From assembly GCF_036507355.1 (NCBI RefSeq), contig NZ_AP027877.1: DNA of 64,000 bases; one strand, 5' to 3'. Origin of the DNA: Escherichia coli (GTDB lineage Bacteria; Pseudomonadota; Gammaproteobacteria; Enterobacterales; Enterobacteriaceae). Position numbers and translations under genes: made by a program. Position 1 is the first letter of the stretch. Each line of letters opens with the position of its first letter. Below are positions 7,224 through 64,000 of the stretch, in pieces. The notes beneath the pieces were generated by a model, which ran no database searches, had not been told where the DNA came from, and saw nothing but the letters and a program-made list of their open reading frames with translations.

Positions 7224-7233
7224 TACACTAACG

Positions 7234-7266
7234 AACCGGTAAACAGCCGTATGTGTTGTTTACCGG
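7234..7266 (+). terminator. hairpin downstream of hdhA (candidate intrinsic terminator)
   Basis: Inverted repeat ccggtaaaca ... tgtttaccgg immediately after the hdhA stop. Confidence 0.5.
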
Positions 7267-7451
7267 GATAGCGTGTGCAATTCATCAACGTCTCTGCTAA
7301 ACAACTGGCAGCCAAATCACGGCTATTGGTTAACCAATAGCTGGATGAAAAGCATACGAATAGAGTGTGCCTTCGCACTATTCAACAGCAATGATAGGCG
7401 CTCACCTGACAACGCGGTAAACTAGTTATTCACGCTAACTATAATGGTTTA

Positions 7452-8042: not shown

Positions 8043-8430
8043 TCTTCTCATTTCGCGGGCTGGTGATAACTGTGCCCGCGTTTCATACTTTAATTTCCCT
8101 GTACAAAATACAATCTCCCCGGGATCGGAGAATTCCCCCCCCAAAATATTCACCGTAGCCATATGTCATGAGAGTTTATCGTTCTCAAGATGCTCGAACG
8201 AACGTTCGATTGCTTATTTTATGGCTTCTGTCAACGCTGTTTTAAAGATTAATGCGATCTATATCACGCTGTGGGTATTGCAGTTTTTGGTTTTTTGATC
8301 GCGGCGTCAGTTCTTTTTATTTCCATTTCTCTTCCATGGGTTTCTCACAGATAACTGTGTGCAACACAGAATTGGTTAACTAATCAGATTAAAGGTTGAC
8401 CAGTATTTTTATCTTAATGAGGAGTCCCTT

Positions 8431-11612
<3,182 letters not shown>

Positions 11613-11650
11613 TATTCAATAAAAATAATCAGAACATCAAAGGTGCAACT

Positions 11651-12915: not shown

Positions 12916-12922
12916 AAAATAA

Positions 12923-12950
12923 CGCCGGAGAGAAAAATCTCCGGCGTTTT
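12923..12950 (+). terminator. intrinsic terminator after uidC
   Basis: GC hairpin cgccggaga-gaaaaa-tctccggcg followed by TTTT. Confidence 0.7.
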
Positions 12951-12959
12951 GGCTGTGAA

Positions 12960-14468
12960 TTACTGCTGCGGAATAGCGGGTACGACCGGAACATTTAATG
13001 CCGGCATTGCAAACATACCAACGAAATCTTCCAGTGGCATTTTCTGCCCGTTTAACGTTATCTGACCGTTAGTATATTGCAGGCTGGTGGTGATGGTATT
13101 GTCCTGCAAGGTGGTCAGACGGAACATCTGCCCCATTGCTGATGCACCTTCAACTTGCTGTTTCGCCAGTTTTTTCGCTTGATCTTCCTGATAACCTTCC
13201 AGCTTCGCTACCTGAGTCATCAACTCAGTTGCCATATCCACCGGAATGGTCAGTTTCGCATCCAGAGATTTAACCGAACGATCTACTTCCTGCGCCAGCG
13301 TTTGCGGCGCTTCTTTAGTCGTTGCCGGATCTTTCAGGAACAGCGACAGATTCAGCGCACTTTCACCCTGACTGTTTTTCCAGCTTAGCGGCGCGATAGT
13401 AATCACCGGATCGCCTTTCAACATCAGCGGCAGGGCGCTAAAGAAGGCTTCCGTCACTTTCTCCTGATAAAGTTCGGGATTGTTGGCAATTTCTGGCTGT
13501 GCCAGCAGCGCCTGAGTTTGCGCGTTATATTGCTGGCTAAACTGATGCCAGGCTTCACCATCAATCTGGCCGACTTTTAAAGTCAGCTTGCCGCTGCCCA
13601 GATCCTGATTCTGTACCTTCAGGCTGTTTAGCGAGTAATCCAGTTGGCTATTGATCGTTTTACCGTCATTGACCAGATCCGATTTACCGCTGATCTCCAT
13701 GCCTTCCAGCAGTGCCAGTTCTTTGCCTTCCACTGAAATGGTCATTTTTTCCAGTGACAGTTTTTGGTTTCCTACGCGCTCACCAAAACTTGCCAGCGTG
13801 CTGGAACCGTCGGTTTTCAGATTATTAAAGGTCAACTGTACTTTCTGGTTGTATTCGTTAACTGCGTCTATCCGACCACTTTGCGCCTCCCCGGAAAGGG
13901 AGATAGCTTTGCCGTCTCTGTCCGCATTTAACTGGAACTCGCCGCCGCTAAAGGCGACTTTTTCATCCTTTTGCTCGTAATTCAGCGGATTGAGCGAAAT
14001 ATCGGAACTGGAATCACCGCTGTAACCAATGCGCGAGTTAATCTCAAAAGGCGTTTCACCTTTTGCCATATCAAACAGTGGGTTGCTTACTTCGTTATTG
14101 ACCAGCGTGGTTTGAATTGATGCCATCGATGGGATCAGGTTCAGTTTTTTAAGCTGGGCAAGGGGGAAGGGACCATGATCAACCGATTCGTTGAAGATGA
14201 CGCTCTGACCGCTTTTAATCCACGGATTTTCTTTCCCGGCAATGGGTTTCACCAACAGTTGCAACTGGCTGCTGAATACGCCGCGATGATAGTTTTGATA
14301 ACTCACTTCCAGGTTGGATTCAGGAGCTGTCAGTTTGAGTTGCGCGTTCGCCTGCGCGACCATCTCTTCGAGATGGGTTTCAATCTTCTTGCCTGTATAC
14401 CATGCGCCGCCTGTCCAGACTACGCCTAGCGCAACAATGACGCCTACCGCTACCAGCGATTTATTCAT
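12960..14468 (-). CDS. ydgA: DUF945-family periplasmic protein YdgA
   Basis: 502-aa ORF with N-terminal signal/anchor; recognised as YdgA. Confidence 0.85.
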   Translation of the reverse strand: MNKSLVAVGVIVALGVVWTGGAWYTGKKIETHLEEMVAQANAQLKLTAPESNLEVSYQNYHRGVFSSQLQLLVKPIAGKENPWIKSGQSVIFNESVDHGPFPLAQLKKLNLIPSMASIQTTLVNNEVSNPLFDMAKGETPFEINSRIGYSGDSSSDISLNPLNYEQKDEKVAFSGGEFQLNADRDGKAISLSGEAQSGRIDAVNEYNQKVQLTFNNLKTDGSSTLASFGERVGNQKLSLEKMTISVEGKELALLEGMEISGKSDLVNDGKTINSQLDYSLNSLKVQNQDLGSGKLTLKVGQIDGEAWHQFSQQYNAQTQALLAQPEIANNPELYQEKVTEAFFSALPLMLKGDPVITIAPLSWKNSQGESALNLSLFLKDPATTKEAPQTLAQEVDRSVKSLDAKLTIPVDMATELMTQVAKLEGYQEDQAKKLAKQQVEGASAMGQMFRLTTLQDNTITTSLQYTNGQITLNGQKMPLEDFVGMFAMPALNVPVVPAIPQQ

Positions 14469-14568
14469 AATGATTATCCATAAAATGAAATCAGGCGGAC
14501 TGGCCGCCTGAAGGTGTTATAAGCCTTTAATAAGCTTAGCAAGAGATGTTAATTTTTTCAGTAAGCTC

Positions 14569-15744
14569 TTACAGCTTGTTGTAAACACGCGCTAAACGGC
14601 CGTGGCCTTTAACAGTCACCGGTGATTCGTTGGCGGCAATAAACGCTGATTCACCCGGTTTAAGCTGTAACTGCTGAGAACCTTTACACAGCGTTGCATC
14701 GCCTTCGACACAGAACAAAATGGCGGCACTCTGCTGGCTAATGGTGGTTTCTTTATCACTAAGGTCATGCAGCGAGAAGGCAAAATCATCAACAGGAATC
14801 GGGAAGTCCAGTTCTGCACCTTGTTTCACCGGCTGGGTCAACAACTGGTTAGCCGGTTTGGCTTCGAACTTCACATTGGCAACCAGTTCCGGAATATCAA
14901 TGTATTTAGGCGTCAGACCCGCACGCAGCACGTTATCGGAGTTTGCCATCACTTCCAGCGCCACGCCTTGCAGGTAAGCGTGCGGTGTTTCAGCGAACAG
15001 GAACATCGCTTCGCCAGGATTCAATTTCACCACATTCAGCAACAGCGGAGAGAACAGGCCGCTGTCATCCGGGTAAAATTCAGAAATTAAACGAATCGTT
15101 TGCCACGGTTCACCCTGCTGACTGTCGAGCGCCGATTTTAAAATCGCCAGCGCGCGGGATTTTTCTTCACCCTGCATATTCAACAGGCTGGCGAACAGTT
15201 CGCTTAAACGTTCGGCATCAGGCTGTTGTAAAAAGTGAGCAATCGCCGGATGTGCACCTGCGACCGGCTGGAGTAGGGAGACAATCTCGGAAAATTCACG
15301 AAACGCGTTCATCGCAAGGAAAGGCGTCAGCGCAAAAACCAGCTCAGGCTTGTGGTTAGGATCTTTATAGTTACGCTCGGCGGCATCCATCGGGATACCT
15401 GCGGCATTTTCTTTGGCAAAACCGATTTCAGAATTGTGTTTGTTTGGATGAACCTGAATGGAGAGCGGCTGTGCTGCGCATAATACTTTGAACAGGAAAG
15501 GCAGTTCGCCAAAGCGTTTGGCAACGGCCTCTCCGAGCAGAGTCGATTTATCACTCTCAATCACATCACGCAGTGAAACGATATCTCCGGCGGCATTCTG
15601 CACTCGTGAACTGCTTTTCGGATGTGCGCCCATCCACAGCTCGGCCATCGGCTGGCTGGACGGATTTTCCATACCATAAAGTTCAGTCAACGCCGTTTTG
15701 CTGCCCCAGGCATAGTTTTGCACTGAGTTAATGAGTTTTTGCAT
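14569..15744 (-). CDS. manA: mannose-6-phosphate isomerase
   Basis: 391 aa from MQKLINSVQNYAWGS (type I PMI N-terminus); the ORF track extends upstream to an earlier Met. Confidence 0.92.
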   Translation of the reverse strand: MQKLINSVQNYAWGSKTALTELYGMENPSSQPMAELWMGAHPKSSSRVQNAAGDIVSLRDVIESDKSTLLGEAVAKRFGELPFLFKVLCAAQPLSIQVHPNKHNSEIGFAKENAAGIPMDAAERNYKDPNHKPELVFALTPFLAMNAFREFSEIVSLLQPVAGAHPAIAHFLQQPDAERLSELFASLLNMQGEEKSRALAILKSALDSQQGEPWQTIRLISEFYPDDSGLFSPLLLNVVKLNPGEAMFLFAETPHAYLQGVALEVMANSDNVLRAGLTPKYIDIPELVANVKFEAKPANQLLTQPVKQGAELDFPIPVDDFAFSLHDLSDKETTISQQSAAILFCVEGDATLCKGSQQLQLKPGESAFIAANESPVTVKGHGRLARVYNKL

Positions 15745-30818: not shown

Positions 30819-31184
30819 ATGTATATTTATTGGATTTTATTAGGTCTGGCTATTGCTACAGAAATTACCGGTACGCTGTCCATGAAATGGGCGAGCGTCA
30901 GTGAGGGAAATGGCGGCTTTATTTTAATGCTGGTGATGATTTCTCTGTCGTATATATTTCTCTCTTTCGCCGTTAAAAAAATCGCCTTAGGCGTAGCTTA
31001 TGCGCTGTGGGAAGGTATCGGTATTTTATTTATTACCTTGTTTAGCGTTTTGTTATTCGACGAAAGTTTATCGCTGATGAAAATTGCCGGGTTAACCACC
31101 CTGGTGGCCGGGATTGTGTTGATCAAATCAGGTACCCGTAAAGCGCATAAACCTGAACTGGAGGTGAACCATGGCGCAGTTTGA
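30819..31184 (+). CDS. mdtJ: SMR-family spermidine exporter subunit MdtJ
   Basis: 121-aa four-helix SMR protein; overlaps mdtI. Confidence 0.9.
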
Positions 31185-31500
31185 ATGGGTTCACGCCGCC
31201 TGGCTGGCATTGGCAATCGTGCTGGAAATCGTTGCTAACGTCTTTTTGAAATTTTCTGACGGCTTTCGTCGCAAAATATTTGGCTTGCTCTCCCTGGCGG
31301 CGGTGCTGGCTGCCTTTAGTGCGCTTTCTCAGGCCGTTAAAGGGATCGACTTGTCTGTCGCTTATGCATTGTGGGGCGGGTTTGGTATTGCCGCCACGTT
31401 AGCCGCAGGTTGGATCTTGTTTGGTCAACGGTTAAATCGTAAAGGCTGGATTGGCCTGGTCTTGCTGTTGGCTGGAATGATCATGGTGAAACTTGCCTGA
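31171..31500 (+). CDS. mdtI: SMR-family spermidine exporter subunit MdtI
   Basis: 109-aa SMR protein paired with mdtJ. Confidence 0.9.
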
Positions 31501-46251: not shown

Positions 46252-46449
46252 AACTCACTCCCTGTTCTTTATCGTTATATAAAAGTTTATATATTGAATA
46301 TTTAGCGCGCTAACAATAGAGGGAGTCTACCCATTTTGGGTTAATAATTATTAATCCATATCAATAGAAGGGTATGAGTAATAAGGTGGGATTATGTTGT
46401 ATGTCCAAATCGCCGGATGTGTCGTATCCGGCGTGTAGTCGATAATGTA

Positions 46450-46755
46450 TTACTGCGGTTCGGCAGGCGCGCCATCCTGGGTAGACTGCGCGGGAGCAGA
46501 GACGTTACCGCTGGTGGTGCGGGTGTAGAGAATTTTATGCGTATCATTAGCGCAATGCCCGACGACCTGGGAATCAGGCTGATCAACCTGGTCATTGGGT
46601 ACAATACTTAACGTGAAGCTGCTTTCGGGTACGCCATTATTGATAATGCGCTGTGATATATCGCTTTGTATGCGCTCACAGGATCCCGGCGCGGCGAGTA
46701 CCGCGGGTGAGGCGAGGGCGAGCAGAAGCGCGGCACAGCAGGTTGAGAGTTTCAT
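46450..46755 (-). CDS. ynfD: DUF1161 small secreted protein YnfD
   Basis: 101 aa from MKLSTCCAALLLALASPAVLAA (signal peptide). Confidence 0.8.
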   Translation of the reverse strand: MKLSTCCAALLLALASPAVLAAPGSCERIQSDISQRIINNGVPESSFTLSIVPNDQVDQPDSQVVGHCANDTHKILYTRTTSGNVSAPAQSTQDGAPAEPQ

Positions 46756-46862
46756 CATAAGCTCCTTACGCGAAGATAACTTCTTTAAGCATAGCATTTA
46801 ACGTGTAAAGTACTGTATTTGCTACTATGATTGAGAATCATCTCTACTCTCTGGTGACTGAT

Positions 46863-47573
46863 GTGAAATACAAATTACTGCCATGCTTACTCGCGATATT
46901 ACTCACAGGATGTGACCGCACAGAGGTAACACTTTCATTTACTCCTGAGATGGCCAGTTTCTCTAATGAATTCGATTTTGATCCGCTGCGTGGTCCGGTA
47001 AAAGATTTCACTCAGACATTAATGGATGAGCAAGGTGAAGTGACGAAACGTGTTTCGGGGACTTTGTCGGAAGAAGGCTGTTTTGATTCACTCGAATTAC
47101 TGGATCTGGAAAATAATACCGTGGTCGCTCTGGTACTGGACGCCAATTATTACCGTGATGCCGAGACGCTGGAGAAGAGAGTACGTTTACAGGGAAAATG
47201 CCAGCTAGCGGAATTACCTTCCGCCGGGGTGAGTTGGGAAACCGATGATAATGGCTTCGTGATTAAAGCCAGCAGCAAACAAATGCAGATGGAATATCGC
47301 TATGATGATCAGGGTTATCCACTGGGTAAAACCACGAAAAGTAACGACAAAACATTATCTGTCAGCGCCACGCCATCAACGGACCCGATCAAAAAATTAG
47401 ATTACACAGCGGTTACTTTACTGAATAATCAACGAGTTGGTAATGTAAAACAGAGCTGTGAATATGACAGTCACGCCAATCCGGTGGACTGTCAGCTGAT
47501 CATTGTTGATGAAGGAGTAAAACCCGCCGTCGAACGGGTTTACACCATCAAAAATACGATCGATTATTATTAA
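46863..47573 (+). CDS. ynfC: UPF0257 lipoprotein YnfC (GTG start)
   Basis: 236 aa beginning (M)KYKLLPCLLAILLTGC with lipobox LTGC; start codon inferred as GTG at 46863. Confidence 0.8.
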   Translation: MKYKLLPCLLAILLTGCDRTEVTLSFTPEMASFSNEFDFDPLRGPVKDFTQTLMDEQGEVTKRVSGTLSEEGCFDSLELLDLENNTVVALVLDANYYRDAETLEKRVRLQGKCQLAELPSAGVSWETDDNGFVIKASSKQMQMEYRYDDQGYPLGKTTKSNDKTLSVSATPSTDPIKKLDYTAVTLLNNQRVGNVKQSCEYDSHANPVDCQLIIVDEGVKPAVERVYTIKNTIDYY

Positions 47574-47575
47574 TG

Positions 47576-48136
47576 CTATTGTGCGGTCGGCTTCAGGAGA
47601 GTCTGACCCGGTGTTTTGTGCTCTGCCAGATACTGATGCTGGAATATACACATGCGAATGGCATTACGATATTGACCATTAATAAAGAACTCGTGCATCA
47701 ATTCACCTTCAACCGAAAAGCCAAGCTTGCGGTAAATGTGAATCGCTTTTTCATTCTCTTTATCAACGATCAGATACAGCTTATAGAGATTGAGAACGGT
47801 GAAGCCATAGTCCATTGCTAATTTGGCGGCACGGGTTGCCAGACCTTTCCCCTGATACTCCGGGGAGATAATTATCTGAAATTCTGCGCGGCGATGAACA
47901 TGGTTAATTTCCACCAGCTCCACCAGACCGGCTTTTTCGCCGTCACATTCCACCACAAAGCGCCGTTCGCTCTGATCGTGAATATGCTTATCATACAGAT
48001 CAGAGAGTTCAACAAAGGCTTCGTAGGGTTCCTCAAACCAGTAACGCATCACACTGGCGTTATTGTCGAGTTGATGTACATAGCGTAAATCTTCACGCTC
48101 CAGCGGGCGTAGCTTAACACTGTGGGCGCTTGGCAT
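47576..48136 (-). CDS. speG: spermidine N1-acetyltransferase (GNAT family), apparently intact
   Basis: 186-aa uninterrupted ORF recognised as SpeG. Confidence 0.92.
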
Positions 48137-48170
48137 AACGTGTCCTTACATTCCTTAAATCAATAACAGG

Positions 48171-48512
48171 TTAGGGGGTAATAACGCGGCCAGTTCGACG
48201 GTCCAGGCAGCGCAAAGTATTGGGCTCCCAGTAGGCATTGATGTTGGCGCTTTGCTCACATTTATCGCGGTTATCAAAAGCGGCGTCGGCTTTATCCCAC
48301 TCTTTTTCAGTGCGTTTATTCACTTTCTGACGCAGATTGCGCGTGTCATTCCATTGCTCTTTTTCCATAGCGGCGTGCTGGCGGCTTTGTGCACTGTCGC
48401 CAGACTCAATCACCAGTTTGTTAGTTTCGGCATGAACAGTTGTGCTCAATGCCAGTGCGCAAGGCAGCAGAAAAGCGAGCAGGCCGATTCGTTTGCTGAG
48501 AGTGATTTTCAT
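48171..48512 (-). CDS. ynfB: UPF0482 secreted protein YnfB
   Basis: 113-aa ORF with signal peptide. Confidence 0.85.
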
Positions 48513-48646
48513 AATTCATTCCCTGTATGAATGATTAAAGGTGATTCTACACCATCCACTGCGAACGCAAAACGTACCAGGAGGGTGTTTATATTGATGA
48601 TATTATGTGGCCCTATAACTATACATGATGTCAATAAGTGACAAAG

Positions 48647-48973
48647 ATGATTAAAACAACGTTACTATTTTTTGCTACTGCGCTGTGTGAAATTATTGGA
48701 TGCTTTCTGCCCTGGTTGTGGTTAAAACGAAACGCCAGTATCTGGCTGTTGCTTCCGGCGGGGATTTCACTGGCGCTGTTTGTCTGGTTGTTAACGTTGC
48801 ATCCTGCGGCGAGTGGGCGTGTTTAGGCGGCTTATGGTGGCGTTTATGTCTGCACGGCGTTGATGTGGCTGCGCGTTGTGGATGGCGTGAAACTGACTCT
48901 TTATGACTGGACGGGTGCGTTGATTGCACTTTGCGGCATGTTGATCATTGTTGCGGGCTGGGGGCGCACGTAG
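48647..48973 (+). pseudogene. ynfA: UPF0060 membrane protein YnfA interrupted by an in-frame amber codon at 48824..48826
   Basis: ORF stops after ...HPAASGRV at TAG (gtt TAG gcg); the same frame then reads [48 protein letters not shown] to a TAG at 48971..48973, giving the expected 108 aa if the internal TAG were a sense codon. Confidence 0.8.
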
Positions 48974-49178
48974 GAACATAAATCCATTTTATCAATAAGA
49001 TACGAGGAAGTGTCAGCTGACAAAAGGTATTCTATTTCATCTTTTGTCAACCATTCACAGCGCAAATATACGCCTTTTTTTGTGATCACTCCGGCTTTTT
49101 TCGATCTTCATACTTGTATGGTAGTAGCTCAGTTGCGTAGATTTCATGCATCACGACAAGCGATGCAAGGAATCGAAT

Positions 49179-51424: not shown

Positions 51425-51470
51425 TACTGAGGTGTACTGGCAATAGCGGACACTACCATTTGTTCTTTTT

Positions 51471-52289
51471 TTAAGCAGCCATCTGATGATATTTTTCCCT
51501 GAAGGCTGCCGGGGAGATATTCCCCAGACGAGAGTGACGACGCTGACGATTGTAGAAAATCTCAATGTATTCCCGTATTACTGAGATGGCTTCATCCCGG
51601 TTATTAAAACGATAGTGGCTCAGGCTCTCATTTTTCAGCGTTCCCCAGAAGCTTTCCATCGGAGCGTTGTCGTAACAGTTACCTTTACGCGACATTGATG
51701 TTTTCAGACCAAACTGCTCCTGTATGACCCGGTAATCGTATGCGCAGTACTGTGAACCTCGATCAGAGTGGTGGATTAGCCCGGCAGGTGGGCGCTGTCT
51801 CCTGAGCGCCATAAACAGGGCTTTACCTGTCAGCTCTTTTGTCATGCGCTCTCCCATGGCGTAGCCGACAATTTCGCACGTATAAACATCTTTGATGCCA
51901 GCGAGGTACAACCATCCCTCCTGTGTGGCAACATACGTCAGGTCCGCCACCCAGACCTGATTTGGTGCTGTAGGAGCGAACGTCTGGTTCAGCAGATTTG
52001 GCGCAACTGGCAGATTGTGGTTCGAGTTCGTAGTCGCTCTGAACTTGCGTTTCTGCTTACAGCGTAGCCTTAGCTCCTTACGAAGACGTGCCAGTCGGTC
52101 ACGACCAACGATGATGCCATTCTCTGCCAGCTCCGTCTGGAGCCGCCGGGTTCCATATGTTTCGCGAGTGCGGATATGTGCCACCTTAATCTCCAGTTTT
52201 AGCCGCTCATCACTTTGTTTTCTGTCTGAGGGTTCATGCTGTACCCAGTTGTAATAACCGCTCCTGGATACACCAAATACCTGACACAT
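51471..52289 (-). CDS. IS600 transposase OrfB (DDE integrase domain)
   Basis: 272-aa ORF recognised as IS600 OrfB; DDE-type catalytic core. Confidence 0.88.
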   Translation of the reverse strand: MCQVFGVSRSGYYNWVQHEPSDRKQSDERLKLEIKVAHIRTRETYGTRRLQTELAENGIIVGRDRLARLRKELRLRCKQKRKFRATTNSNHNLPVAPNLLNQTFAPTAPNQVWVADLTYVATQEGWLYLAGIKDVYTCEIVGYAMGERMTKELTGKALFMALRRQRPPAGLIHHSDRGSQYCAYDYRVIQEQFGLKTSMSRKGNCYDNAPMESFWGTLKNESLSHYRFNNRDEAISVIREYIEIFYNRQRRHSRLGNISPAAFREKYHQMAA

Positions 52290-52324
52290 CGCTTCAATGG
52301 GAAATTGTTGTCGCCATTGTTCGA

Positions 52325-52627
52325 TTAACGCGTATTTTTCAGCGACTCCTGTGCAAAATACGCTGTTGCTTTTTTTAATATATCTCGCTCAAGGCGAGCT
52401 TCATTTAACGCCTTACGCAGTTGCAGAATTTCAGATTCCAGTTCAGCCACCGTGCGGGAACCAGGAGTACCGAGCCCTTTTCTGGCGGCGGTAACCCATT
52501 GTCCTAAAGTGCCTTCAGGAAGAGATAATCGGGAAGCGCCTTCACTGATCGAAAGTTGATTTTCAAGAACCGTTCTGACAGCTTCGGCTTTGAACTCTTT
52601 AGAGTAACGTTGGGTTTTTCTGCTCAT
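52325..52627 (-). CDS. IS600 transposase OrfA (HTH)
   Basis: 100-aa ORF MSRKTQRYSKEFKAEAVRTV... recognised as IS600 OrfA; ends at the slippery heptamer. Confidence 0.88.
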   Translation of the reverse strand: MSRKTQRYSKEFKAEAVRTVLENQLSISEGASRLSLPEGTLGQWVTAARKGLGTPGSRTVAELESEILQLRKALNEARLERDILKKATAYFAQESLKNTR

Positions 52628-54386
52628 TATTAGCTCCTTCTGATGCCATTCTATTTCAGGAAGGAGTGTCCGTTAAACTCAGGCTACCTCATACCAATAA
52701 CGGCGAGTAAGTAGTACGCATCTTACCTCTTTTTTAGAGATAACCATTATGTCAATAGAAAAACACGAAAGAAGCACTAAGGATTTGGTGAAAGCAGCAG
52801 TATCGGGATGGCTGGGCACTGCGCTTGAATTTATGGATTTCAAGAGTCATGCGTGTTAACTATTTGATAAATATTAAATTAATTTTTCATTGCTTCGTTA
52901 TGGGGCATGGTTGGGGCAAACTCGCTTAACTGTGTATTTAACAAAGCTACCTGTGCATTATTGTTTTCAGACATCCATTTTCCGTATAGACCCTCCGCAT
53001 CTTGAGAGTGTTGGTGATAACGCCTGGATGGGAAAGAAATATGGACGGCTGAATAAAGATGCCTGGCGTGATGATTCGCGACAGAGATTTAAAGAAGCCT
53101 TTCGGGTGTTGAGGCCGCACGGCGTTCTGATTTTTTAATGGAATGAAACGCAAATACCGGTAAGCCAGATTCTGGCACTGACAGACAGAAAACCTGTTAT
53201 CTGTCAACGAACAGGGAAAAAACGATAAAACCCACTGGATTATTTTTATGAAAGAGGCATCCAGTGAGTAGATTCGTAAGGCTACAGATACGTATATCTG
53301 AATAATTAAATTCAGTTCTGTAAATAAAATTTAATCCTTAACCGGATGGATTTCTGCACCCTCAGAACATCAGGAGGCCGCCCGAAAGGGCGGTAGTGAA
53401 ATGCGAAAGTTCAAAATTATTATTGAAACGGGAATAGCTGGTGGAGATTTTGAGGATGTATTCGAAGTGGACGATGACGCAACACCTGAGGAAATTCATG
53501 ACGGAGCATAAGAAATTTTCTTTAACTACTGCAATTACTCATACCACGAAATAAAAGACGATGAGGAAGAACAAAGTGGCTGATTTTTGTTCAGCTAAAT
53601 ATAACATCAGTTTTGAAGAGCGGGATGAACTATTAATGGACTATGGTGAGTTACGCGGTGGAAGTGCTGCTGATGTCGAATCCTAGCGTGATGACTATGA
53701 AGCGGGAAAAACTCCGGTCGAAGCATATTGTGATGAGTGGGGCGATGAATGAGCGAGATTAATTATCAGGAAGGGCATGAAACGGCGGGGCAAGCAAAAC
53801 CAGTGGCATGGCGATATCGCTACGTGAAAAAAGGCGTTACGGACTTTCAGGGGAAGTAGTGGTCTGGTGACTGGAAATATGTACCGAAAAAAGAGGATTG
53901 TAACGACAGGCCGAACTATCAAATTCAGGCCTTATTCACTGCCTCACCAGTCCCAGTTACATCAGAAGAACTGGTTAAAGCTGTGCACTTTTATGAACAA
54001 CTAAAACGCGAAAATCCACCAACATCCGGCAACTAGATTAATGGATTAACTATGTCGGTTAAACGACCAGCCAACTGAAAAAGCGGAAACCTGATTACAG
54101 GTTGCCAGATAAGGCAATGAGCTACCTGGCGCGGAACGGACTGATAAGTATGGGGAATGTTTTACGATGAACCTTTAGACTAAAGAGTTTGTAACGCTAT
54201 GTAAGTGATTTTTTCTGGTTTAGATATTTATATGTCCGGCCAAATTGAGGTGTGTTTAAATGTAATTGCACATTGATTGTAGGAGGAATAATGAAAAACG
54301 CATTGCAGTTTTTGTTTGTTGCGTTCTGGTTGTTCGCATCATGTATGCCCATCATCTTCACAGCAAGGTGAATCGCCACGGATAAT

Positions 54387-55199
54387 CTAGACACTTCCGA
54401 GCCGTTGATAATACTGGTTTTCATATTCTGTCGGTGACATCTGATCGCTGGAACCATGCCGACGCTTACTGTTATAAAACATTTCGATGTAATCAAAAAT
54501 ATCGCTGCGGGCTTCTTCCCGCGTTCCGTAGATCTTTTTCTTTATCCGTTCGCGTTTCAACAACTGGAAAAAGCTTTCTGCAACCGCATTATCATGGCAG
54601 TTACCGCGACGGCTCATGCTGCCATCCAGGCCGTGTGATTTCAGGAACGACTGCCACTCATGGCTTGTGTACTGACTGCCCTGATCCGAATGAACCAGCA
54701 CCTGTTTTTGGGGATTACGGCGCCATACAGCCATCAGCAGTGCGTTCAGGACAATGTCCTTTGTCATCCGGGATTGCATGGACCAGCCGATAATTTTGCG
54801 TGAGAACAGATCAACAACCACGGCAAGATACAGCCAGCCTTCGTGGGTCCTGATGTAGGTTATGTCCGTTACCCAACGCTTATCCGGAGCATCCGGATTG
54901 AACTGTCGCTGGAGCCTGTTGGGCGACACGATACTGGCCTCGCCTTTACGTGCCCGCGGGCTCCGGTATCCGACCTGAGCCTTTATCCCGACACGTTTCA
55001 TCAGTCGCCAGACTCTGTTCACTCCGCACTGTTGCCCGCTGTCCCGCAGATCCAGATGGATTTTGCGATAACCATAGACGCATCCCGATTCCAGCCAGAA
55101 CTGTTTAATCTGCCCTGTCAGCCTCAGGTCTGCCTGATGGCGTTGTGAATGCGGCTGCTGAAGCCAGGCGTAAAAACCACTGGGATGAACATCCAGCAC
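54387..55199 (-). CDS. IS3-family transposase OrfB
   Basis: 270-aa ORF with DDE integrase core (…HSDQGSQYTS…, …GNCHDNAVAESFF…). Confidence 0.85.
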   Translation of the reverse strand: MLDVHPSGFYAWLQQPHSQRHQADLRLTGQIKQFWLESGCVYGYRKIHLDLRDSGQQCGVNRVWRLMKRVGIKAQVGYRSPRARKGEASIVSPNRLQRQFNPDAPDKRWVTDITYIRTHEGWLYLAVVVDLFSRKIIGWSMQSRMTKDIVLNALLMAVWRRNPQKQVLVHSDQGSQYTSHEWQSFLKSHGLDGSMSRRGNCHDNAVAESFFQLLKRERIKKKIYGTREEARSDIFDYIEMFYNSKRRHGSSDQMSPTEYENQYYQRLGSV

Positions 55200-55255
55200 C
55201 CGACAGAGCAGGCGAACAGGCCAGCAACAGGTGTTGTCACGGATAAAGGCGTACC

Positions 55256-55540
55256 TCAGTCGGACAGCTTTGCGAAGTACGCCGCGGCTTTTTTTAATAT
55301 GTCCCGTTCGTCGGTAACCCGCTTCAGCTCTTTCTGGAGACGGCGGATCTCGGCCTGAGCATCTGACTGTTCTTTATTAGCGGAAGAATCCGGACCGTAC
55401 TTCTTTATCCAGGCGTAAAGGCTGTGGGTGGTGATATCGAGACGTGTTGCAACGCTGGCAACAGAATAACCGCGATCAACAACCTGTTTGACTGCTTCAA
55501 TTTTAAACTCTTCGGGATAACGCTTACCGCTCATGGGCAC
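55256..55540 (-). CDS. IS3-family transposase OrfA
   Basis: 94-aa HTH ORF ending at the slippery heptamer. Confidence 0.85.
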   Translation of the reverse strand: MPMSGKRYPEEFKIEAVKQVVDRGYSVASVATRLDITTHSLYAWIKKYGPDSSANKEQSDAQAEIRRLQKELKRVTDERDILKKAAAYFAKLSD

Positions 55541-55760
55541 CTCTCTTTAAGCCATCTTAAATGACTCTGAGGTGTCTGTTAAACCCGTGGCGATTCATAA
55601 TTGATCATGGGTTGTCAGTTAAACTCGTGGCGATTTAAATAGACTAATTGGGAGTGCGTCCATTACTTATATCTTGTAATGTTAACTATCAGAAATTCTT
55701 GTAATGTTAACTATCAGAAATGATACAAAGATAATATGTCTTTAAAGAAAAGGCTGATGG

Positions 55761-55785
55761 CGAAAAGTGGCCCGATGAGGGCCAC
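55761..55785 (-). terminator. intrinsic terminator of flxA
   Basis: On the minus strand: hairpin GTGGCCC-TCATC-GGGCCAC followed by TTTTC. Confidence 0.7.
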
Positions 55786-55799
55786 AATACGGCTGTCAC

Positions 55800-56132
55800 T
55801 TAGACGTAAATATCAATGGTGCCAGCGGTATTTGTATCGTCTTTTTTCTCTTCTTTTTTATCAGGCTGAACTGTCGCGTCTTCATTCTTTTTCTCTGCCT
55901 GCTGCCTTAACAACTGCTCCAGTTGAGCCCAGAGGCTTTCAATTTGCTTCTGTACCAATGCAGCCATTTCTTTTTTCTGCTGTGTCGTCATCCCCTCTTC
56001 CGATGAGATTTTCCCAAGCTTTTCAGTCAGCACCTGAATTTGTCTTGTGATTTTGGCTATTTCTGATGTTCCTTCCGGGGCGGAGTTGTTTGAAATAACG
56101 GTTGAGGTATTTCCCTGAATTGTGACAGACAT
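55800..56132 (-). CDS. flxA: FliA-regulated prophage protein FlxA
   Basis: 110-aa ORF recognised as FlxA; preceded by a sigma28-type promoter and a GGAG ribosome-binding site. Confidence 0.8.
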   Translation of the reverse strand: MSVTIQGNTSTVISNNSAPEGTSEIAKITRQIQVLTEKLGKISSEEGMTTQQKKEMAALVQKQIESLWAQLEQLLRQQAEKKNEDATVQPDKKEEKKDDTNTAGTIDIYV

Positions 56133-56155
56133 AGATTTCTCCTTTTAAAAAAGCA

Positions 56156-56182
56156 CTATCGGCATGCACAAAAAAATCTTTA
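56156..56182 (-). promoter_or_regulatory. sigma28 (FliA) promoter of flxA
   Basis: Minus strand reads TAAAGATT-N11-GCCGATAG, matching consensus TAAAGTTT-N11-GCCGATAA, about 25 nt upstream of the flxA start. Confidence 0.75.
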
Positions 56183-56334
56183 ATCGTATTTCTTGTGTCA
56201 TTAATTGTTTGATGTTCAGATTGTTTTCCTCGCGGGCTGGCGCGCCTCAGAAAGTAAAGCTTGTTGACAGGGGTAAACGTTCGGCAATAATTTTCTGCCG
56301 CATGCGGGTGTTGCATAAAACGTGTTACGTTCCT

Positions 56335-56640
56335 TTATCGACAGGTCAGGTCACCGCTCACCCGCCGACGAGAAAGCAACACTGACATGCTAAAGCAAAA
56401 AATAGATGAATAAGTTGAGTTGTGCATATGTAGCCTGACCGTCACAAAGTATATGGTGTCTGTACCAGTAAGATGATGGCCGGACTCTTTAAAAACGAGC
56501 TGACCTGCACAATACAGGATGGACTTAGCAATGGCTGCTCCTGGCACAAAGCGGACAGTGATCACCGTTCTTACGACTACTTTCTGACTTCCTTCGTGAC
56601 TTGCCCTAAGCATGTTGTAGTGCGATACTTGTAATGACAT
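56335..56640 (-). CDS. ydfV: prophage protein of unknown function (YdfV-like)
   Basis: 101-aa ORF between flxA and relB; identity rests on size and position only. Confidence 0.4.
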   Translation of the reverse strand: MSLQVSHYNMLRASHEGSQKVVVRTVITVRFVPGAAIAKSILYCAGQLVFKESGHHLTGTDTIYFVTVRLHMHNSTYSSIFCFSMSVLLSRRRVSGDLTCR

Positions 56641-56653
56641 TTGTAATTACAAG
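56628..56653. promoter_or_regulatory. relBE operator (inverted TTGTAAT repeats)
   Basis: cttgtaatgacatttgtaattacaag about 12 bp upstream of the relB ATG. Confidence 0.7.
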
Positions 56654-56664
56654 AGGTGTAAGAC

Positions 56665-56904
56665 ATGGGTAGCATTAACCTGCGTATTGACGATGAACTT
56701 AAAGCGCGTTCTTACGCCGCGCTTGAAAAAATGGGTGTAACTCCTTCTGAAGCGCTTCGTCTCATGCTCGAGTATATCGCTGACAATGAACGCTTGCCGT
56801 TCAAACAGACACTCCTGAGTGATGAAGATGCTGAACTTGTGGAGATAGTGAAAGAACGGCTTCGTAATCCTAAGCCAGTACGTGTGACGCTGGATGAACT
56901 CTGA
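56665..56904 (+). CDS. relB: RelB antitoxin
   Basis: 79-aa ORF recognised as RelB; stop overlaps the relE start. Confidence 0.92.
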   Translation: MGSINLRIDDELKARSYAALEKMGVTPSEALRLMLEYIADNERLPFKQTLLSDEDAELVEIVKERLRNPKPVRVTLDEL

Positions 56905-57191
56905 TGGCGTATTTTCTGGATTTTGACGAGCGGGCACTAAAGGAATGGCGAAAGCTGGGCTCGACGGTACGTGAACAGTTGAAAAAGAAGCTGGTTGAAG
57001 TACTTGAGTCACCCCGGATTGAAGCAAACAAGCTCCGTGGTATGCCTGATTGTTACAAGATTAAGCTCCGGTCTTCAGGCTATCGCCTTGTATACCAGGT
57101 TATAGACGAGAAAGTTGTCGTTTTCGTGATTTCTGTTGGGAAAAGAGAACGCTCGGAAGTATATAGCGAGGCGGTCAAACGCATTCTCTGA
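56904..57191 (+). CDS. relE: RelE mRNA interferase toxin
   Basis: 95-aa ORF recognised as RelE. Confidence 0.92.
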   Translation: MAYFLDFDERALKEWRKLGSTVREQLKKKLVEVLESPRIEANKLRGMPDCYKIKLRSSGYRLVYQVIDEKVVVFVISVGKRERSEVYSEAVKRIL

Positions 57192-57250
57192 ACCAAAGCT
57201 TCGCACCGAAGGTGACACTTCTGCTTTGCGTTGACAGGAGAAGCAGGCTA

Positions 57251-57406
57251 TGAAGCAGCAAAAGGCGATGTTAATCGCCCTGATCGTCATCTGTTTAACC
57301 GTCATAGTGACGGCACTGGTAACGAGGAAAGACCTCTGCGAGGTACGAATCCGAACCGGCCAGACGGAGGTCGCTGTCTTCACAGCTTACGAACCTGAGG
57401 AGTAAG
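57251..57406 (+). CDS. hokD: Hok-family type I toxin (HokD/RelF)
   Basis: 51-aa ORF MKQQKAMLIALIVICLTVIVTALVTRKDLCEVRIRTGQTEVAVFTAYEPEE translated by hand from the sequence (below the ORF-track size cutoff). Confidence 0.85.
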
Positions 57407-57471
57407 AGACCCGGCGGGGGAGAAATCCCTCGCCACCTCTGATGTGGCAGGCATCCTCAACGCACCCGCAC

Positions 57472-57500
57472 TTAACCCGCTTCGGCGGGTTTTTGTTTTT
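57472..57500 (+). terminator. intrinsic terminator after hokD
   Basis: aacccgc-ttcg-gcgggtt followed by TTTTGTTTTT. Confidence 0.7.
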
Positions 57501-57621
57501 ATTTTCAACGCGTTTGAAGTTCTGGACGGTGCCGGAATAGAATCAAAAATACTTAAGTAGCGCGCAGGGATAAGAGGGATGGTCCCTTAAAGGGGAGAGC
57601 TAATTATCCGGAAGGATTCTG

Positions 57622-57873
57622 ATGATGAACATCGAAGAACTGCGTAAAATTTTTTGTGAAGATGGCCTCTATGCTGTGTGCGTTGAAAATGGAAATCTTG
57701 TTAGTCATTACCGCATTATGTGTTTGCGAAAGAATGGGGCTGCGTTAATTAATTTTGTGGATGCTCGGGTCACGGACGGATTTATCTTGCGCGAAGGTGA
57801 GTTTGTCACTTCATTACAGGCATTGAAAGAGATCGGAATAAAAGCTGGCTTTTCTGCTTTTTCAGGAGAATAA
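57622..57873 (+). CDS. rem: prophage protein Rem
   Basis: 83-aa ORF at the position of rem in Qin-type prophages. Confidence 0.6.
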   Translation: MMNIEELRKIFCEDGLYAVCVENGNLVSHYRIMCLRKNGAALINFVDARVTDGFILREGEFVTSLQALKEIGIKAGFSAFSGE

Positions 57874-58180
57874 ACTCATCTACAATCTTGCGCGGGGCTG
57901 AACTCCCGCTGAGTAACACCGTGCCACCGGAGAAAACCGATGGCACGCAACGCAAAATATTACAATTCTGATAATTCGCCCGTTCTTGCCTGCACGCACG
58001 GGCGGTATTCTCACGCATTCAAGTCTGAATGGTTCCAGCACCCTCCATGCACTGCAGAACAGGCCGAATGGCTGATTCATTCTTACCGCAGGCGCGGGTT
58101 CGAGGTTAAGAAAGCTCTCAGTCTCGACTATCGGCACTGGATAATCTCTGTCAGGCTGCCTTATTCCGAACGCCCACCAC

Positions 58181-59269
58181 GTGCGTCCCGCACTTTCCAG
58201 CAACGGATCTGGAGGTAACGTGCGGGTATTACTTAGACCTGTTCTGGTGCCTGAGCTTGGGCTGGTGGTCCTTAAGCCGGGCCGTGAATCCATACAGATA
58301 TTTCATAATCCTCGAGTGCTGGTGGAACCGGAACCAAAAAGCATGCGTAATCTGCCATCCGGAGTCGTTCCTGCCGTTCGCCAGCCGCTGGCGGAAGACA
58401 AAACATTGCTGCCGTTTTTTAGTAACGAACGGGTGATTCGTGCTGCTGGCGGCGTTGGCGCATTGTCCGACTGGCTATTACGTCATGTTACATCCTGCCA
58501 GTGGCCTAATGGCGATTACCATCACACTGAAACAGTCATTCACCGTTATGGTACCGGCGCAATGGTGTTGTGCTGGCACTGCGACAACCAACTGCGTGAC
58601 CAGACATCGGAATCACTGGAGCTGCTTGCTCAACAAAATCTGACAGCATGGGTGATTGACGTCATCCGTCACGCAATAAGCGGTACGCAGGAGCGGGAAT
58701 TATCTTTGGCTGAATTATCCTGGTGGGCGGTCTGCAATCAGGTGGTGGATGCACTACCTGAGGCTGTATCGCGTCGTTCGCTGGGATTACCAGCGGAAAA
58801 AATCTGCTCGGTGTACCGCGAAAGCGACATCGTACCGGGAGAGCAGACCGCCACCAGCATATTGAAACAACGCACAAAAAATCTTGCACCGTTGCCTTAC
58901 GCCCACCAGCAACAAAAATCACCACAGGAAAAGACGGTGGTAAGCATCACCGTTGATCCAGAGTCTCCGGAATCTTTCATGAAGCTGCCTAAACGTCGCC
59001 GCTGGGTTAAGGAGAAATACACACGTTGGGTTAAGACACAGCCGTGTGCTTGCTGCGGTATGCCAGCCGACGATCCGCATCATCTGATTGGTCACGGGCA
59101 GGGCGGAATGGGAACAAAAGCACATGATCTCTTTGTGTTGCCTTTGTGCAGAAAGCATCACAACGAGCTGCATACGGATACAGTGGCATTTGAAGATAAG
59201 TATGGCTCCCAACTGGAGCTGATATTTCGTTTTATCGATCGCGCGCTGGCAATTGGCGTACTGGCGTAA
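58181..59269 (+). CDS. ydfU: DUF968-family prophage protein YdfU
   Basis: 362-aa ORF upstream of and overlapping the Q antiterminator gene; true start may be internal. Confidence 0.65.
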   Translation: MRPALSSNGSGGNVRVLLRPVLVPELGLVVLKPGRESIQIFHNPRVLVEPEPKSMRNLPSGVVPAVRQPLAEDKTLLPFFSNERVIRAAGGVGALSDWLLRHVTSCQWPNGDYHHTETVIHRYGTGAMVLCWHCDNQLRDQTSESLELLAQQNLTAWVIDVIRHAISGTQERELSLAELSWWAVCNQVVDALPEAVSRRSLGLPAEKICSVYRESDIVPGEQTATSILKQRTKNLAPLPYAHQQQKSPQEKTVVSITVDPESPESFMKLPKRRRWVKEKYTRWVKTQPCACCGMPADDPHHLIGHGQGGMGTKAHDLFVLPLCRKHHNELHTDTVAFEDKYGSQLELIFRFIDRALAIGVLA

Positions 59270-59282
59270 GTGGAGAACGAGC

Positions 59283-60035
59283 ATGAACCTTGAAGCCTTA
59301 CCAAAATATTACTCCCCAAAATCTCCAAAATTGAGCGATGACGCTCCAGCGACAGGCACCGGTTGTTTAACAATTACGGATGTAATGGCAGCGCAGGGGA
59401 TGGTGCAGTCGAAAGCACCACTTGGGTTGGCCTTATTTCTGGCAAAAGTTGGTGTTCAGGACCCTCAGTTTGCGATTGAAGGCCTGCTAAATTACGCGAT
59501 GGCACTGGATAACCCGACATTGAACAAATTGAGTGAAGAAATCCGGTTACAGATTATTCCTTACCTCGTGAGTTTTGCCTTTGCTGATTACTCCAGGTCT
59601 GCGGCAAGTAAGGCTCGCTGTGAGCATTGTTCAGGTACGGGATTTTATAATGTATTGCGCGAAGTGGTGAAACACTACAGACGCGGGGAATCTGTAATCA
59701 AGGAAGAATGGGTGAAGGAACTATGTCAGCATTGCCATGGTAAGGGCGAAGCCAGCACAGCGTGCAGAGGGTGTAAGGGTAAAGGGATTGTTCTGGATGA
59801 AAAAAGAACCCGGTTTCATGGCGTACCGGTATATAAGATTTGTGGGCGTTGTAATGGAAACCGGTTTAGTCGTTTACCGACCACGCTGGCACGACATCAT
59901 GTCCAGAAGCTGGTACCAGACCTGACCGATTATCAGTGGTATAAGGGGTATGCGGACGTCATTGGTAAACTGGTAACAAAGTGCTGGCAGGAAGAAGCAT
60001 ACGCGGAAGCGCAATTGAGGAAGGTGACGAGATAA
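59283..60035 (+). CDS. quuQ: lambdoid late-gene antiterminator Q
   Basis: 250 aa from MNLEALPKYY; zinc-finger cysteines (CxxC...CxxC) typical of Q proteins. Confidence 0.8.
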   Translation: MNLEALPKYYSPKSPKLSDDAPATGTGCLTITDVMAAQGMVQSKAPLGLALFLAKVGVQDPQFAIEGLLNYAMALDNPTLNKLSEEIRLQIIPYLVSFAFADYSRSAASKARCEHCSGTGFYNVLREVVKHYRRGESVIKEEWVKELCQHCHGKGEASTACRGCKGKGIVLDEKRTRFHGVPVYKICGRCNGNRFSRLPTTLARHHVQKLVPDLTDYQWYKGYADVIGKLVTKCWQEEAYAEAQLRKVTR

Positions 60036-60141
60036 ATGATTTTTGCTGAAGATGGCGACATGATGTTTGCATTTTTCAAAAAATATGGATAAAATTTTTT
60101 CAACGATGGGCTTTGTATACCCGACGTTAAGAAAAAGTAGA

Positions 60142-60164
60142 AAACCCGCTGATGAGCGGGTTTT
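60142..60164. terminator. hairpin downstream of the Q gene (tR'-like or bidirectional)
   Basis: aaacccgct-gatg-agcgggttt flanked by an A-run and a T-run. Confidence 0.55.
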
Positions 60165-60456
60165 GTGCTTTAAATGGGGCAATGGTAATGTTGAATCTCA
60201 TCCCGGGACTCATGTCTGTTAACTTATTATTTAGCTGGTGACTTGGTTATTTGCCTGATGTTTAAAATGTTTTCTTCCAGTACAATGTCCCTAAACACAA
60301 TGAGTCTGCTTATTATATTATTAGCAGAGCTATTACGGCCAAAGTACAGCATAAGCTTTTAAAGCCAATCAACCAGTCATCAAGACAGACGGGGTTATTC
60401 ATAAAAACTCTCCATGTGTGATCCGATGGGGCCTGAAATTAAAGCTTTAATATAGC

Positions 60457-60669
60457 TCATGAAAGGTAAACATTGGCAGCTGAAGGGCCACGCAGACCAT
60501 TTATCCGGCAAAATTCCACGCGTAATCCGGTGGTAATTTCTTCTGCATCGCGGAGATTGAGCGGTGAAACATGAAGCTGGACATCGATACGACCATCGGA
60601 TGGGGTGATAAGACCCTTGCCGCTTTTGCCGTCAAAGGTTTTGACAATTCCTGTCATTTTACGGGACAA
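60457..60669 (-). CDS. cspF: cold-shock-domain protein CspF
   Basis: 70-aa CspA-family ORF. Confidence 0.88.
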
Positions 60670-60969
60670 AAAAATTCCTTAATACTGATAACTTGGCGCA
60701 CTATACACACGTTCCTGAAGAAAGCTATAGTTTTTTGATGGGGTTGAAGATGGCTGGATGTCTAAAATAAACATTGCTTCATATGTTCAACTATGCGTTA
60801 ATGATTGCGTCGGTTTGAAGAACAGACGATATACGAAGTAGTTTACTAAAGCAGTTCTCATTTCAGGTGTTATTCACTTATTCCTTCTTTGAGTCTCTCC
60901 AATTAAGTACGAAGTCGTTTCTGTTATGCAAACCATTTATGCCGAAAGGCTCAAGTTAAGGAATGTAGA

Positions 60970-61185
60970 ATGTCAAATAAAATGACTGGTTTAGTAAAAT
61001 GGTTTAACGCTGATAAAGGTTTCGGCTTTATTTCTCCTGTTGATGGTAGTAAAGATGTGTTTGTGCATTTTTCTGCGATTCAGAATGATAATTATCGAAC
61101 CTTATTTGAAGGTCAAAAGGTTACCTTCTCTATAGAGAGTGGTGCTAAAGGTCCTGCAGCAGCAAATGTCATCATTACTGATTAA
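60970..61185 (+). CDS. cspB: cold shock protein CspB
   Basis: 71-aa ORF with RNP1-like KGFGFI motif; long upstream leader. Confidence 0.92.
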
Positions 61186-61466
61186 AATTCATCGCTCGTC
61201 TGTATACGATAACGAAGAAGGCTGATGCCTGAGTAGAGATACGGACAGAGTAGTGAATATTGGATCTCTTTAATAAAAAGTAAGGAGGTCCAATACATGA
61301 AACAATGGCTAGCATATTTGGCAAAATCTTAATCAGGAAAAGTATGCTAACCATTGTGGTGAAGTGCAGGTTTGCTGCATGAATAGTTTTACAGCAGAAG
61401 CTAACTGCTGGCATGGCAAAACAAAGTGCGTAAGTGGATGACTCCCACAAAAAGCACCACAATCTC

Positions 61467-61490
61467 AAACCCGCTCAGGCGGGTTTTTTA
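61467..61490 (+). terminator. intrinsic terminator downstream of cspB
   Basis: aaacccgc-tcag-gcgggttt followed by a T-run. Confidence 0.6.
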
Positions 61491-61548
61491 TTATCTGCTT
61501 TAAATATATTATTAAAATATAAAAAATACTTGTTACTAATAAAATCAA

Positions 61549-61770
61549 TCAGGCTACAGCTTTAAGATTTGTCTGGAATACTTTGTTGCAATGAGGGCAG
61601 ATCAAAAGGGCACCTTTTTGTACTCTTGAAAAACTGTGTTCTGACTCTTGGGTGCAGTTTGGGCAGGAACATTTAACGAGATAATTACGGCGTGATTTTG
61701 AGTTTTTACGTTCTGACATAGGCTTTTCCTGTATAAATGGCCGTATACAGTACACTAAATATGAAAACAT
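61549..61770 (-). CDS. small zinc-ribbon-like prophage ORF
   Basis: 73-aa ORF with two CxxC pairs (CSCPNC ... CPHC); function unknown. Confidence 0.4.
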   Translation of the reverse strand: MFSYLVYCIRPFIQEKPMSERKNSKSRRNYLVKCSCPNCTQESEHSFSRVQKGALLICPHCNKVFQTNLKAVA

Positions 61771-61938
61771 TTCTCGTATTATTATTTTATATATGACTTT
61801 CTTTCAAAATAATTACCCACATTTTTAATGTGTATGTTTTTTTAGCGCCGTTGAGAACAACGTGTGCTGTCAAAACTACCCCGTAGACTCCGATCTTTTC
61901 AAACATATTGCACCATCCGTGTACATCGGGGTGAGGAT

Positions 61939-62154
61939 ATGAAATCAATGGATAAGTTAACAACAGGTGTTGCATATGGCACATCGGCGGGTAATGCTGG
62001 TTTCTGGGCATTGCAGTTACTCGATAAAGTAACTCCGTCACAGTGGGCTGCAATCGGTGTGCTGGGTAGCCTGGTTTTTGGCCTGCTGACGTATCTGACA
62101 AATCTTTATTTCAAGATTAAAGAAGACAGGCGTAAGGCTGCGAGAGGAGAGTAA
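61939..62154 (+). CDS. essQ: phage 21 S-type pinholin with dual-start motif
   Basis: 71 aa from [18 protein letters not shown]...; close to phage 21 S21 in sequence; two closely spaced Met codons (MKSMDK) typical of holin/antiholin. Confidence 0.85.
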
Positions 62155-62158
62155 TCCA

Positions 62159-62466
62159 ATGACTCAAGACTATGAACTGGTTGTGAAAGGAGTCCGTAAT
62201 TTTGAGAATAAAGTTACGGTAACTGTAGCCTTACAGGACAAAGAACGCTTTGACGGTGAAATTTTTGACCTGGATGTCGCCATGGACCGTGTTGAAGGAG
62301 CTGCGCTGGAGTTTTATGAGGCAGCAGCCAGAAGGAGCGTCCGGCAAGTCTTCCTGGAAGTAGCAGAAAAATTGTCAGAAAAAGTTGAGTCTTATCTGCA
62401 GCATCAGTACTCCTTTAAGATTGAAAATCCTGCCAATAAGCACGAGCGTCCTCATCATAAATATCT

Positions 62467-62470
<4 letters not shown>
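62159..62470 (+). CDS. ydfR: prophage protein YdfR
   Basis: 103-aa ORF between the holin and endolysin genes. Confidence 0.6.
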
Positions 62471-63494
<1,024 letters not shown>

Positions 63495-63856
63495 GGTAAT
63501 ATTAAATCGGAACATTTACATCGCGGAATGTAAAATTTAAATAAAAAGGACTCTTCCATGAGCCAAAATTCCTGAAATCTTAAGGGTAAGATAAAAGGTC
63601 TTAATCAGAATGACACGTTTTATTAATAAATAAAGCTATTCTTTCATTGCTGTGTTTTTCTTTACAAAAGTAATCCTTGCTATGGGTGGTTAATCATGCG
63701 TTAATGGTGTTCTGGTTTGTTACAAATTTATCTGAAGCAGTCATTGTTATAATTTTATTATTTGTACCTCTTGAGATTTCCTTGTTGGTTTTTCTCTCTG
63801 ATATTTTTTTTCGGACCATTCTGCCCAAGGGCTAATTTCTTCAAAAGGTAATAATT

Positions 63857-64000
63857 ATGTCTAACAAAATGACTGGTTTAGTGAAATGGTTTAACCCTGA
63901 AAAAGGTTTTGGTTTCATCACGCCGAAAGATGGCAGCAAAGATGTGTTTGTCCATTTCTCAGCAATTCAGAGCAACGATTTCAAAACATTAACTGAGAAT
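63857..64000 (+). CDS. cspI: cold shock protein CspI (5' part; truncated by the window end)
   Basis: [48 protein letters not shown]...; the window ends inside the gene. Confidence 0.85.

Follow-up and report, generated by a model that had tools for sequence, protein, structure and literature searches.

The speG locus of a rare, mildly decaying Escherichia coli lineage is intact and probably of the ordinary, non-Shigella type

Introduction

The speG genes of Shigella, of EIEC and of E. coli K-12 are the closest described counterparts of the locus examined here. In Shigella, speG was defective in all strains examined (Barbagallo et al. 2011, PMC3213128) and belongs to the functions that Hawkey et al. 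2020 (PMC7373316) list as lost throughout Shigella, and the original prediction, which took the gene to be inactivated in Shigella lineages, agrees with both sources. The published lesions are of several types: in S. flexneri a GT deletion leads to a stop at codon 7, in S. dysenteriae 1 the gene carries an IS1N insertion and in S. dysenteriae 2 the substitution S56R, in S. boydii insertion of IS911/IS600 was followed by erosion, and in S. sonnei the whole locus has been lost (PMC3213128). Loss of speG in Shigella raises spermidine levels and enhances survival in macrophages (PMC3213128). In EIEC the gene is mostly retained, being kept in four of five strains of one panel and 11 of 16 of another (PMC4156367, PMC6692546). 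EIEC strains with changes at positions -28, +139, +282 and +811 of the operon transcribe speG at a level equal to or above that of K-12 and make N-acetylspermidine (Campilongo et al. 2014, PMC4156367); in EIEC HN280 an intact speG is silenced at the promoter by an IS2 element at -4 (PMC4156367).

Here we describe the speG locus in a 64-kb stretch of E. coli DNA (referred to below as the window), in which an intact gene lies in the same stretch as a copy of IS600 and several pseudogenes, and we consider what this combination says about the lineage from which the DNA comes.

Results

The speG gene and its product

The gene under study has the following position.

47576 to 48136, minus strand: speG, spermidine N1-acetyltransferase; intact in the list of open reading frames, with an ATG start and 186 codons

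The claim of a clean 186-aa reading frame was borne out, as a single ORF occupies 47576 to 48136 and its product is identical at 186 of 186 residues to PDB 6cy6, the E. coli spermidine N1-acetyltransferase, and also equals residues 25-210 of PDB 4r9m. From the identity to 6cy6 it follows that every catalytic and allosteric residue of the characterised E. coli enzyme is conserved. Direct reading of the reverse complement of 48112-48136 gave the wild-type 5' sequence of speG, ATGCCAAGCGCCCACAGTGTTAAGC. The NCBIfam equivalog model NF011709 aligned to residues 1-186 over model positions 1-186 with a score of 406.4 bits (cutoff 218 bits), and the Pfam GNAT domains Acetyltransf_3 and Acetyltransf_1 were detected in the protein at 78.8 and 71.3 bits, respectively.

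Comparison with K-12 b1584 revealed no amino-acid difference, no gap and one synonymous nucleotide difference, a T>C change at operon position +811 (window 47801). This pattern of one synonymous and no amino-acid change argues for maintenance of speG by purifying selection. The exact protein is UniProt ATDA_ECOLI (P0A951) and is encoded on at least 1000 contigs of the protein collection; the speG locus is carried by 5388 of the 5426 complete E. coli genomes. E. coli normally has an intact speG.

The ynfB-speG operon with its surroundings

The window corresponds to the ydgJ-to-Qin region of K-12 (about 1.640-1.704 Mb) in reversed orientation. The features that bear on the context and expression of speG are these.

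48171 to 48512, minus strand: ynfB (DUF1283), which opens the ynfB-speG operon; 113 aa, intact, with the substitution I14F
48513 to 48646, minus strand: promoter and 5' leader of ynfB-speG; transcription start mapped to window 48611
48647 to 48973, plus strand: ynfA pseudogene, divergent neighbour of ynfB; Y60*, TAC>TAG at 48824 to 48826
46863 to 47573, plus strand: ynfC, lipoprotein gene convergent with speG; intact and full-length, with one amino-acid difference from K-12
30819 to 31500, plus strand: mdtJ-mdtI, spermidine/multidrug exporter genes; intact, with one amino-acid difference in mdtJ, none in mdtI, and no gaps or stops

Positions 15320 to 51427 of the window align to K-12 without gaps at 98.9% identity, and there is therefore no IS, indel or deletion near speG, where the gene order is canonical (rspAB, ynfA, ynfB-speG, ynfC, ynfD, ynfEFGH-dmsD). 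The K-12 system (b1584; PDB 4r9m, 6cy6 and 3wr7) shares with the window the same SpeG protein, the operon partner ynfB, the neighbours ynfA, ynfC, ynfD and ynfEFGH, and the spacing; the differences are the synonymous change in speG, YnfB I14F, three promoter/leader SNPs and the nonsense codon in ynfA. The ynfA remnant of 59 aa covers the first 59 of the 107 positions of the Pfam family UPF0060. In ynfB, the I14F substitution results from A>T at gene nucleotide 40 and is accompanied by one synonymous change; the exact YnfB protein is YNFB_ECO24 and occurs on at least 1000 contigs.

Operon positions are counted as in Table S2 of PMC4156367, in which A>T at +139 corresponds to I14F, and this places the transcription start at K-12 1655709 and window 48611. 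On this scale the operon differs from K-12 at six positions: -28 T>A (48639), +3 G>C (48609) and +48 C>T (48564), which are the only three SNPs in the promoter and leader, followed by +139 A>T, +282 C>T and the +811 T>C change in speG. The 34-nt spacer between ynfB and speG is identical to that of K-12, and no IS or indel was present in the promoter/leader in the alignment to K-12. A scan for consensus promoters gave counts at chance level, with the K-12 site unchanged; an Rfam scan near speG gave no match. Judged from its sequence, the ynfB-speG operon is undamaged in its coding sequences, spacer and promoter region.

The three SNPs between ynfA and ynfB (-28, +3 and +48), of which -28 alone is documented in EIEC, nevertheless raise the question of whether the frame could be intact and the gene silenced through its promoter or leader, giving a Shigella-like phenotype, for which the IS2 at -4 before the intact speG of HN280 provides a precedent (PMC4156367). 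We consider such silencing very improbable, because the promoter carries no insertion or indel and the -28 T>A change occurs in EIEC with normal or raised speG transcription, because zero amino-acid changes against one synonymous change argue for continued purifying selection, and because several isolates of the lineage have kept this allele.

Comparison with Shigella and EIEC alleles

None of the published Shigella lesions was found in the window. The 19_20delGT deletion is absent from speG, where the wild-type sequence ATGCCAAGCGCCCACAGTGTTAAGCTACGC was found, which is the same as the wild-type probe of PMC6692546; S56R is absent, residue 56 of SpeG being Ser; and the gapless alignment to K-12 contains neither an IS in speG nor a deletion of the locus, the lesions of the S. 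dysenteriae 1, S. boydii and S. sonnei types. The Shigella null alleles have the locus and its flanking genes in common with the window, which also carries IS600 at another place, but there is no inactivating lesion here. By its speG locus, the window is excluded from all four classical Shigella groups. That the DNA is E. coli rather than classical Shigella, as had been proposed, is also in keeping with the database labels of five lineage-specific proteins: the exact matches of YnfE, YdgA, RspB, MalY and YnfH (BED22349, BED22322, BED22356, BED22311 and BED22346, respectively) are all labelled Escherichia coli. An exact-protein look-up found no protein on record for the truncated UidA or for a 347-aa variant of RspB.

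The EIEC alleles (PMC4156367) have in common with the window an intact speG, -28 T>A, YnfB I14F, +282 C>T and +811 T>C. They differ in that S141T (+896), +649, +715 and +919, found in all four sequenced EIEC alleles, are missing from the window, whose leader in turn carries two SNPs private to it (+3 G>C and +48 C>T). In general terms, speG is retained in EIEC while the genome decays, and the window fits this picture, with EIEC membership being putative. It might be supposed that the strain is an EIEC or comes from an otherwise host-restricted lineage in which Shigella-like reductive evolution has only begun, with IS elements and pseudogenes accumulating and speG not yet lost. The reported retention of speG by most EIEC speaks for such a stage and the dissimilarity of the speG haplotype from the four sequenced EIEC alleles against it; with the evidence from relatives, pseudogenes and IS elements given below, we regard it as unlikely.

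Direct markers that could bear on this alternative (pINV, ipaH, cadA, nadAB and ompT) lie outside the window, so that none is available in its favour. The mxi regions of pCP301 and of an EIEC plasmid were also compared with PLSDB, where all ten E. coli plasmids with mxi-spa had CP accessions and none a DDBJ accession, which is a weak argument against an invasion plasmid in this strain and hence against this alternative.

Relatives of the window strain

No close relative was present among 5426 complete RefSeq E. coli genomes, for which the best matches were 99.3% identical for 46300-49100, 99.4% for 15320-40000 and 99.1% for 1-15319. This lack of a complete relative better than 99.1-99.4% counts towards an early stage of reductive evolution. 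An alignment of about 49 kb that took in the window, K-12, TB06052, O157:H7 TR01 and 33F4 showed the window to be 99.1-99.2% identical to TB06052, TR01 and 33F4, which are mutually 99.2% identical. The notion of an unusually divergent lineage was ruled out by this comparison, as the distance of 0.8-0.9% to TB06052, 33F4 and TR01 equals their mutual distances; the lineage is unsampled among complete genomes and not exceptionally divergent, and this equality of distances weighs against early reductive evolution.

Closer relatives were found among draft assemblies. Across 8.4 kb that include speG, both SRR17480487 and GCA_021425525.1 show 100% identity to the window. A single base that lies outside speG separates GCA_905398585.1 from the window in 11.1 kb, and the contig of this relative breaks off 79 bp inside the IS600 copy that the window also has; SRR32181686 differs from the window at eight positions in 21.5 kb. 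In every draft relative covering the speG locus, the gene encodes 186 aa. The short-read contigs of the relatives are short, measuring 42-119 kb, and two of the contig ends examined coincide with IS elements (an IS1 for SRR17480487, the IS600 for GCA_905398585.1), a further point for a lineage in early decay.

Gene decay in the lineage

Besides ynfA, three genes in the window are disrupted.

8431 to 10242, plus strand: uidA pseudogene; W492*, TGG>TAG, base 9905
11651 to 12915, plus strand: uidC pseudogene; 1-bp deletion at gene nucleotide 198, lineage-wide, outside homopolymer runs
3550 to 5141, minus strand: malX pseudogene; 1-bp deletion at gene nucleotide 1067 (window ~4076), outside homopolymer runs

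These four disruptions were found among 61 K-12 genes compared, and amount to 4 of the 48 core genes from ydgJ to ynfA. Over the same ydgJ-to-ynfA span there were no disrupted genes in TB06052, O157 TR01 or 33F4, according to their PGAP annotation, or in K-12, and this excess counts for early reductive evolution. It has more substance as a Shigella-like sign than the IS600 copy described below, and because of it the lineage may be something other than a plain commensal.

The disruptions differ in their distribution among the relatives. The ynfA nonsense codon (Y60*) is common to SRR17480487, GCA_021425525.1 and GCA_905398585.1, and the same truncated uidC ORF of 364 aa is present in both SRR32181686 and SRR17480487. 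SRR32181686, the sole relative with a contig reaching malX, lacks the frameshift in this gene. W492* in uidA is specific to the window strain, with SRR32181686 and SRR17480487 both having G at 9905; uidA is intact in SRR32181686, and in SRR17480487 an IS1 end breaks into it at about window 8782. Two independent events within the lineage, W492* in the window strain and the IS1 of SRR17480487, have inactivated the gene, and this repeated loss also favours a stage of early decay. Taken together, the decay of accessory sugar-utilisation genes in this rare lineage is ongoing, partly parallel and mild.

Two peculiarities were noted in TR01 (NZ_CP033605.1), which is labelled O157:H7: its uidA is annotated as intact, and a prophage integrase fragment cuts its rspA short. 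In classical O157:H7, uidA is defective.

The presence of 1-bp frameshifts in uidC and malX led us to consider whether the intact speG ORF is itself an artefact of assembly or consensus that masks a frameshift such as 19_20delGT. No result supports this, and three independent short-read assemblies give the same 186-aa speG with no differences within the gene. An assembly artefact is thereby effectively ruled out as the source of the intact ORF, and the reproduction of the uidC frameshift in short-read assemblies shows that the assembly of the window is reliable.

IS elements and prophage

Two IS elements were found in the window.

51428 to 52691, minus strand: IS600, 1264 bp, full length; TAC target duplication at 51425-51427 and 52692-52694
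54369 to 55597, minus strand: second IS3-family element, 1229 bp, with 38-nt imperfect terminal inverted repeats, in a Qin-like prophage remnant

The IS600 copy begins 3 bp past the rspB stop codon, shares 99.9% identity with annotated E. coli copies of IS600 and encodes an orfA of 100 aa and an orfB of 272 aa, both matching the IS3 family, in agreement with the defining features of IS600 (about 1264 bp, two overlapping ORFs, terminal inverted repeats and a 3-bp target duplication); the ORFs of the second element (94 and 270 aa) match IS3-family transposase. The IS600 junction is also present in GCA_905398585.1. An insertion shared with the STEC strain UTAK-23 was considered and ruled out, as the UTAK-23 copy, some 108 bp farther along, is a separate insertion. 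The occurrence of separate IS600 copies about 108 bp apart at the junction of rspB and the prophage suggests a preferred target area.

In the original prediction IS600 was reckoned, together with the pseudogenes, as Shigella-like content at odds with an intact speG. Both the element and the four pseudogenes are real, but IS600 is present at 80% or more of its length in 1613 of the 5426 complete E. coli genomes, with some trace in 3486, and the window has one copy; because the element is common in E. coli, a single copy is not diagnostic of Shigella, and the tension with an intact speG was overstated. The IS count of two in 64 kb, both at or in the prophage, is below the density in Shigella, for which 5-9 IS per 100 kb are reported (PMC7373316), and above that typical of E. 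coli. Two IS3-family elements within 64 kb can be cited for an early stage of reductive evolution, and against it the 51-kb chromosomal core, in which no IS was found in the alignment to K-12.

The prophage region has further features of its own. Window 52989-55597 is absent from K-12, replaces the K-12 Qin segment from dicA to intQ, and resembles prophage genes of ATCC 8739 (methyltransferase, DUF7167). The Qin genes at 55593-62524 (flxA, relBE, hokD, rem, ydfU, ydfT, cspF, cspB, essQ and ydfR) are 99.4-100% identical to K-12, and the chromosomal core flanking them is about 98.7% identical, which suggests that the Qin prophage and the backbone have different histories. Two cspA thermoregulator leaders (RF01766) were detected in the prophage, one at 60809-61201 upstream of cspB and another at 63711-64000 that is cut by the end of the window.

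Discussion

We conclude that the window very likely contains the ordinary, functional chromosomal speG of a rare and mildly decaying E. coli lineage that is not Shigella, and that speG is intact because the genome is not that of a Shigella. According to this explanation, the lineage would have gained a few IS elements and lost ynfA, uidC, uidA and malX, without the loss of speG that is specific to Shigella. SpeG is a GNAT-fold enzyme that transfers the acetyl group from acetyl-CoA to spermidine, forming inert N-acetylspermidine and so neutralising excess polyamine, and in the window strain the promoter upstream of ynfB would drive the joint transcription of ynfB and speG. We infer from the undamaged operon that speG is probably expressed and active in the window strain, and this would give the strain a polyamine profile of the E. 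coli type and not of the Shigella type. An intact, functional speG in E. coli is in itself already known biology.

The original prediction had also allowed for an atypical lineage and had described its inference, drawn from a single locus, as weak. The latter was a fair description. Atypicality has modest support, in that 4 of 48 genes are disrupted against none in the three comparators and there is no close complete relative, but the lineage is not exceptionally divergent. A more far-reaching interpretation is that this is a rare E. coli lineage undergoing reductive evolution of the kind seen in Shigella and EIEC and still keeping speG. The signs that can be counted for it are the gain of IS600, IS1 and IS3-family elements, the lineage-wide loss of ynfA and uidC, and the repeated loss of uidA. 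We think this improbable.

In E. coli it is the loss of speG and not its retention that is the notable state, loss being seen only in Shigella and in a minority of EIEC. An intact speG is useful for the window as a negative marker against the classical Shigella groups. The gene decay observed in the lineage would matter only if the lineage were invasive or host-restricted. If it did prove to be undergoing reductive evolution, it would offer a natural intermediate for working out the order in which pathoadaptive losses occur.
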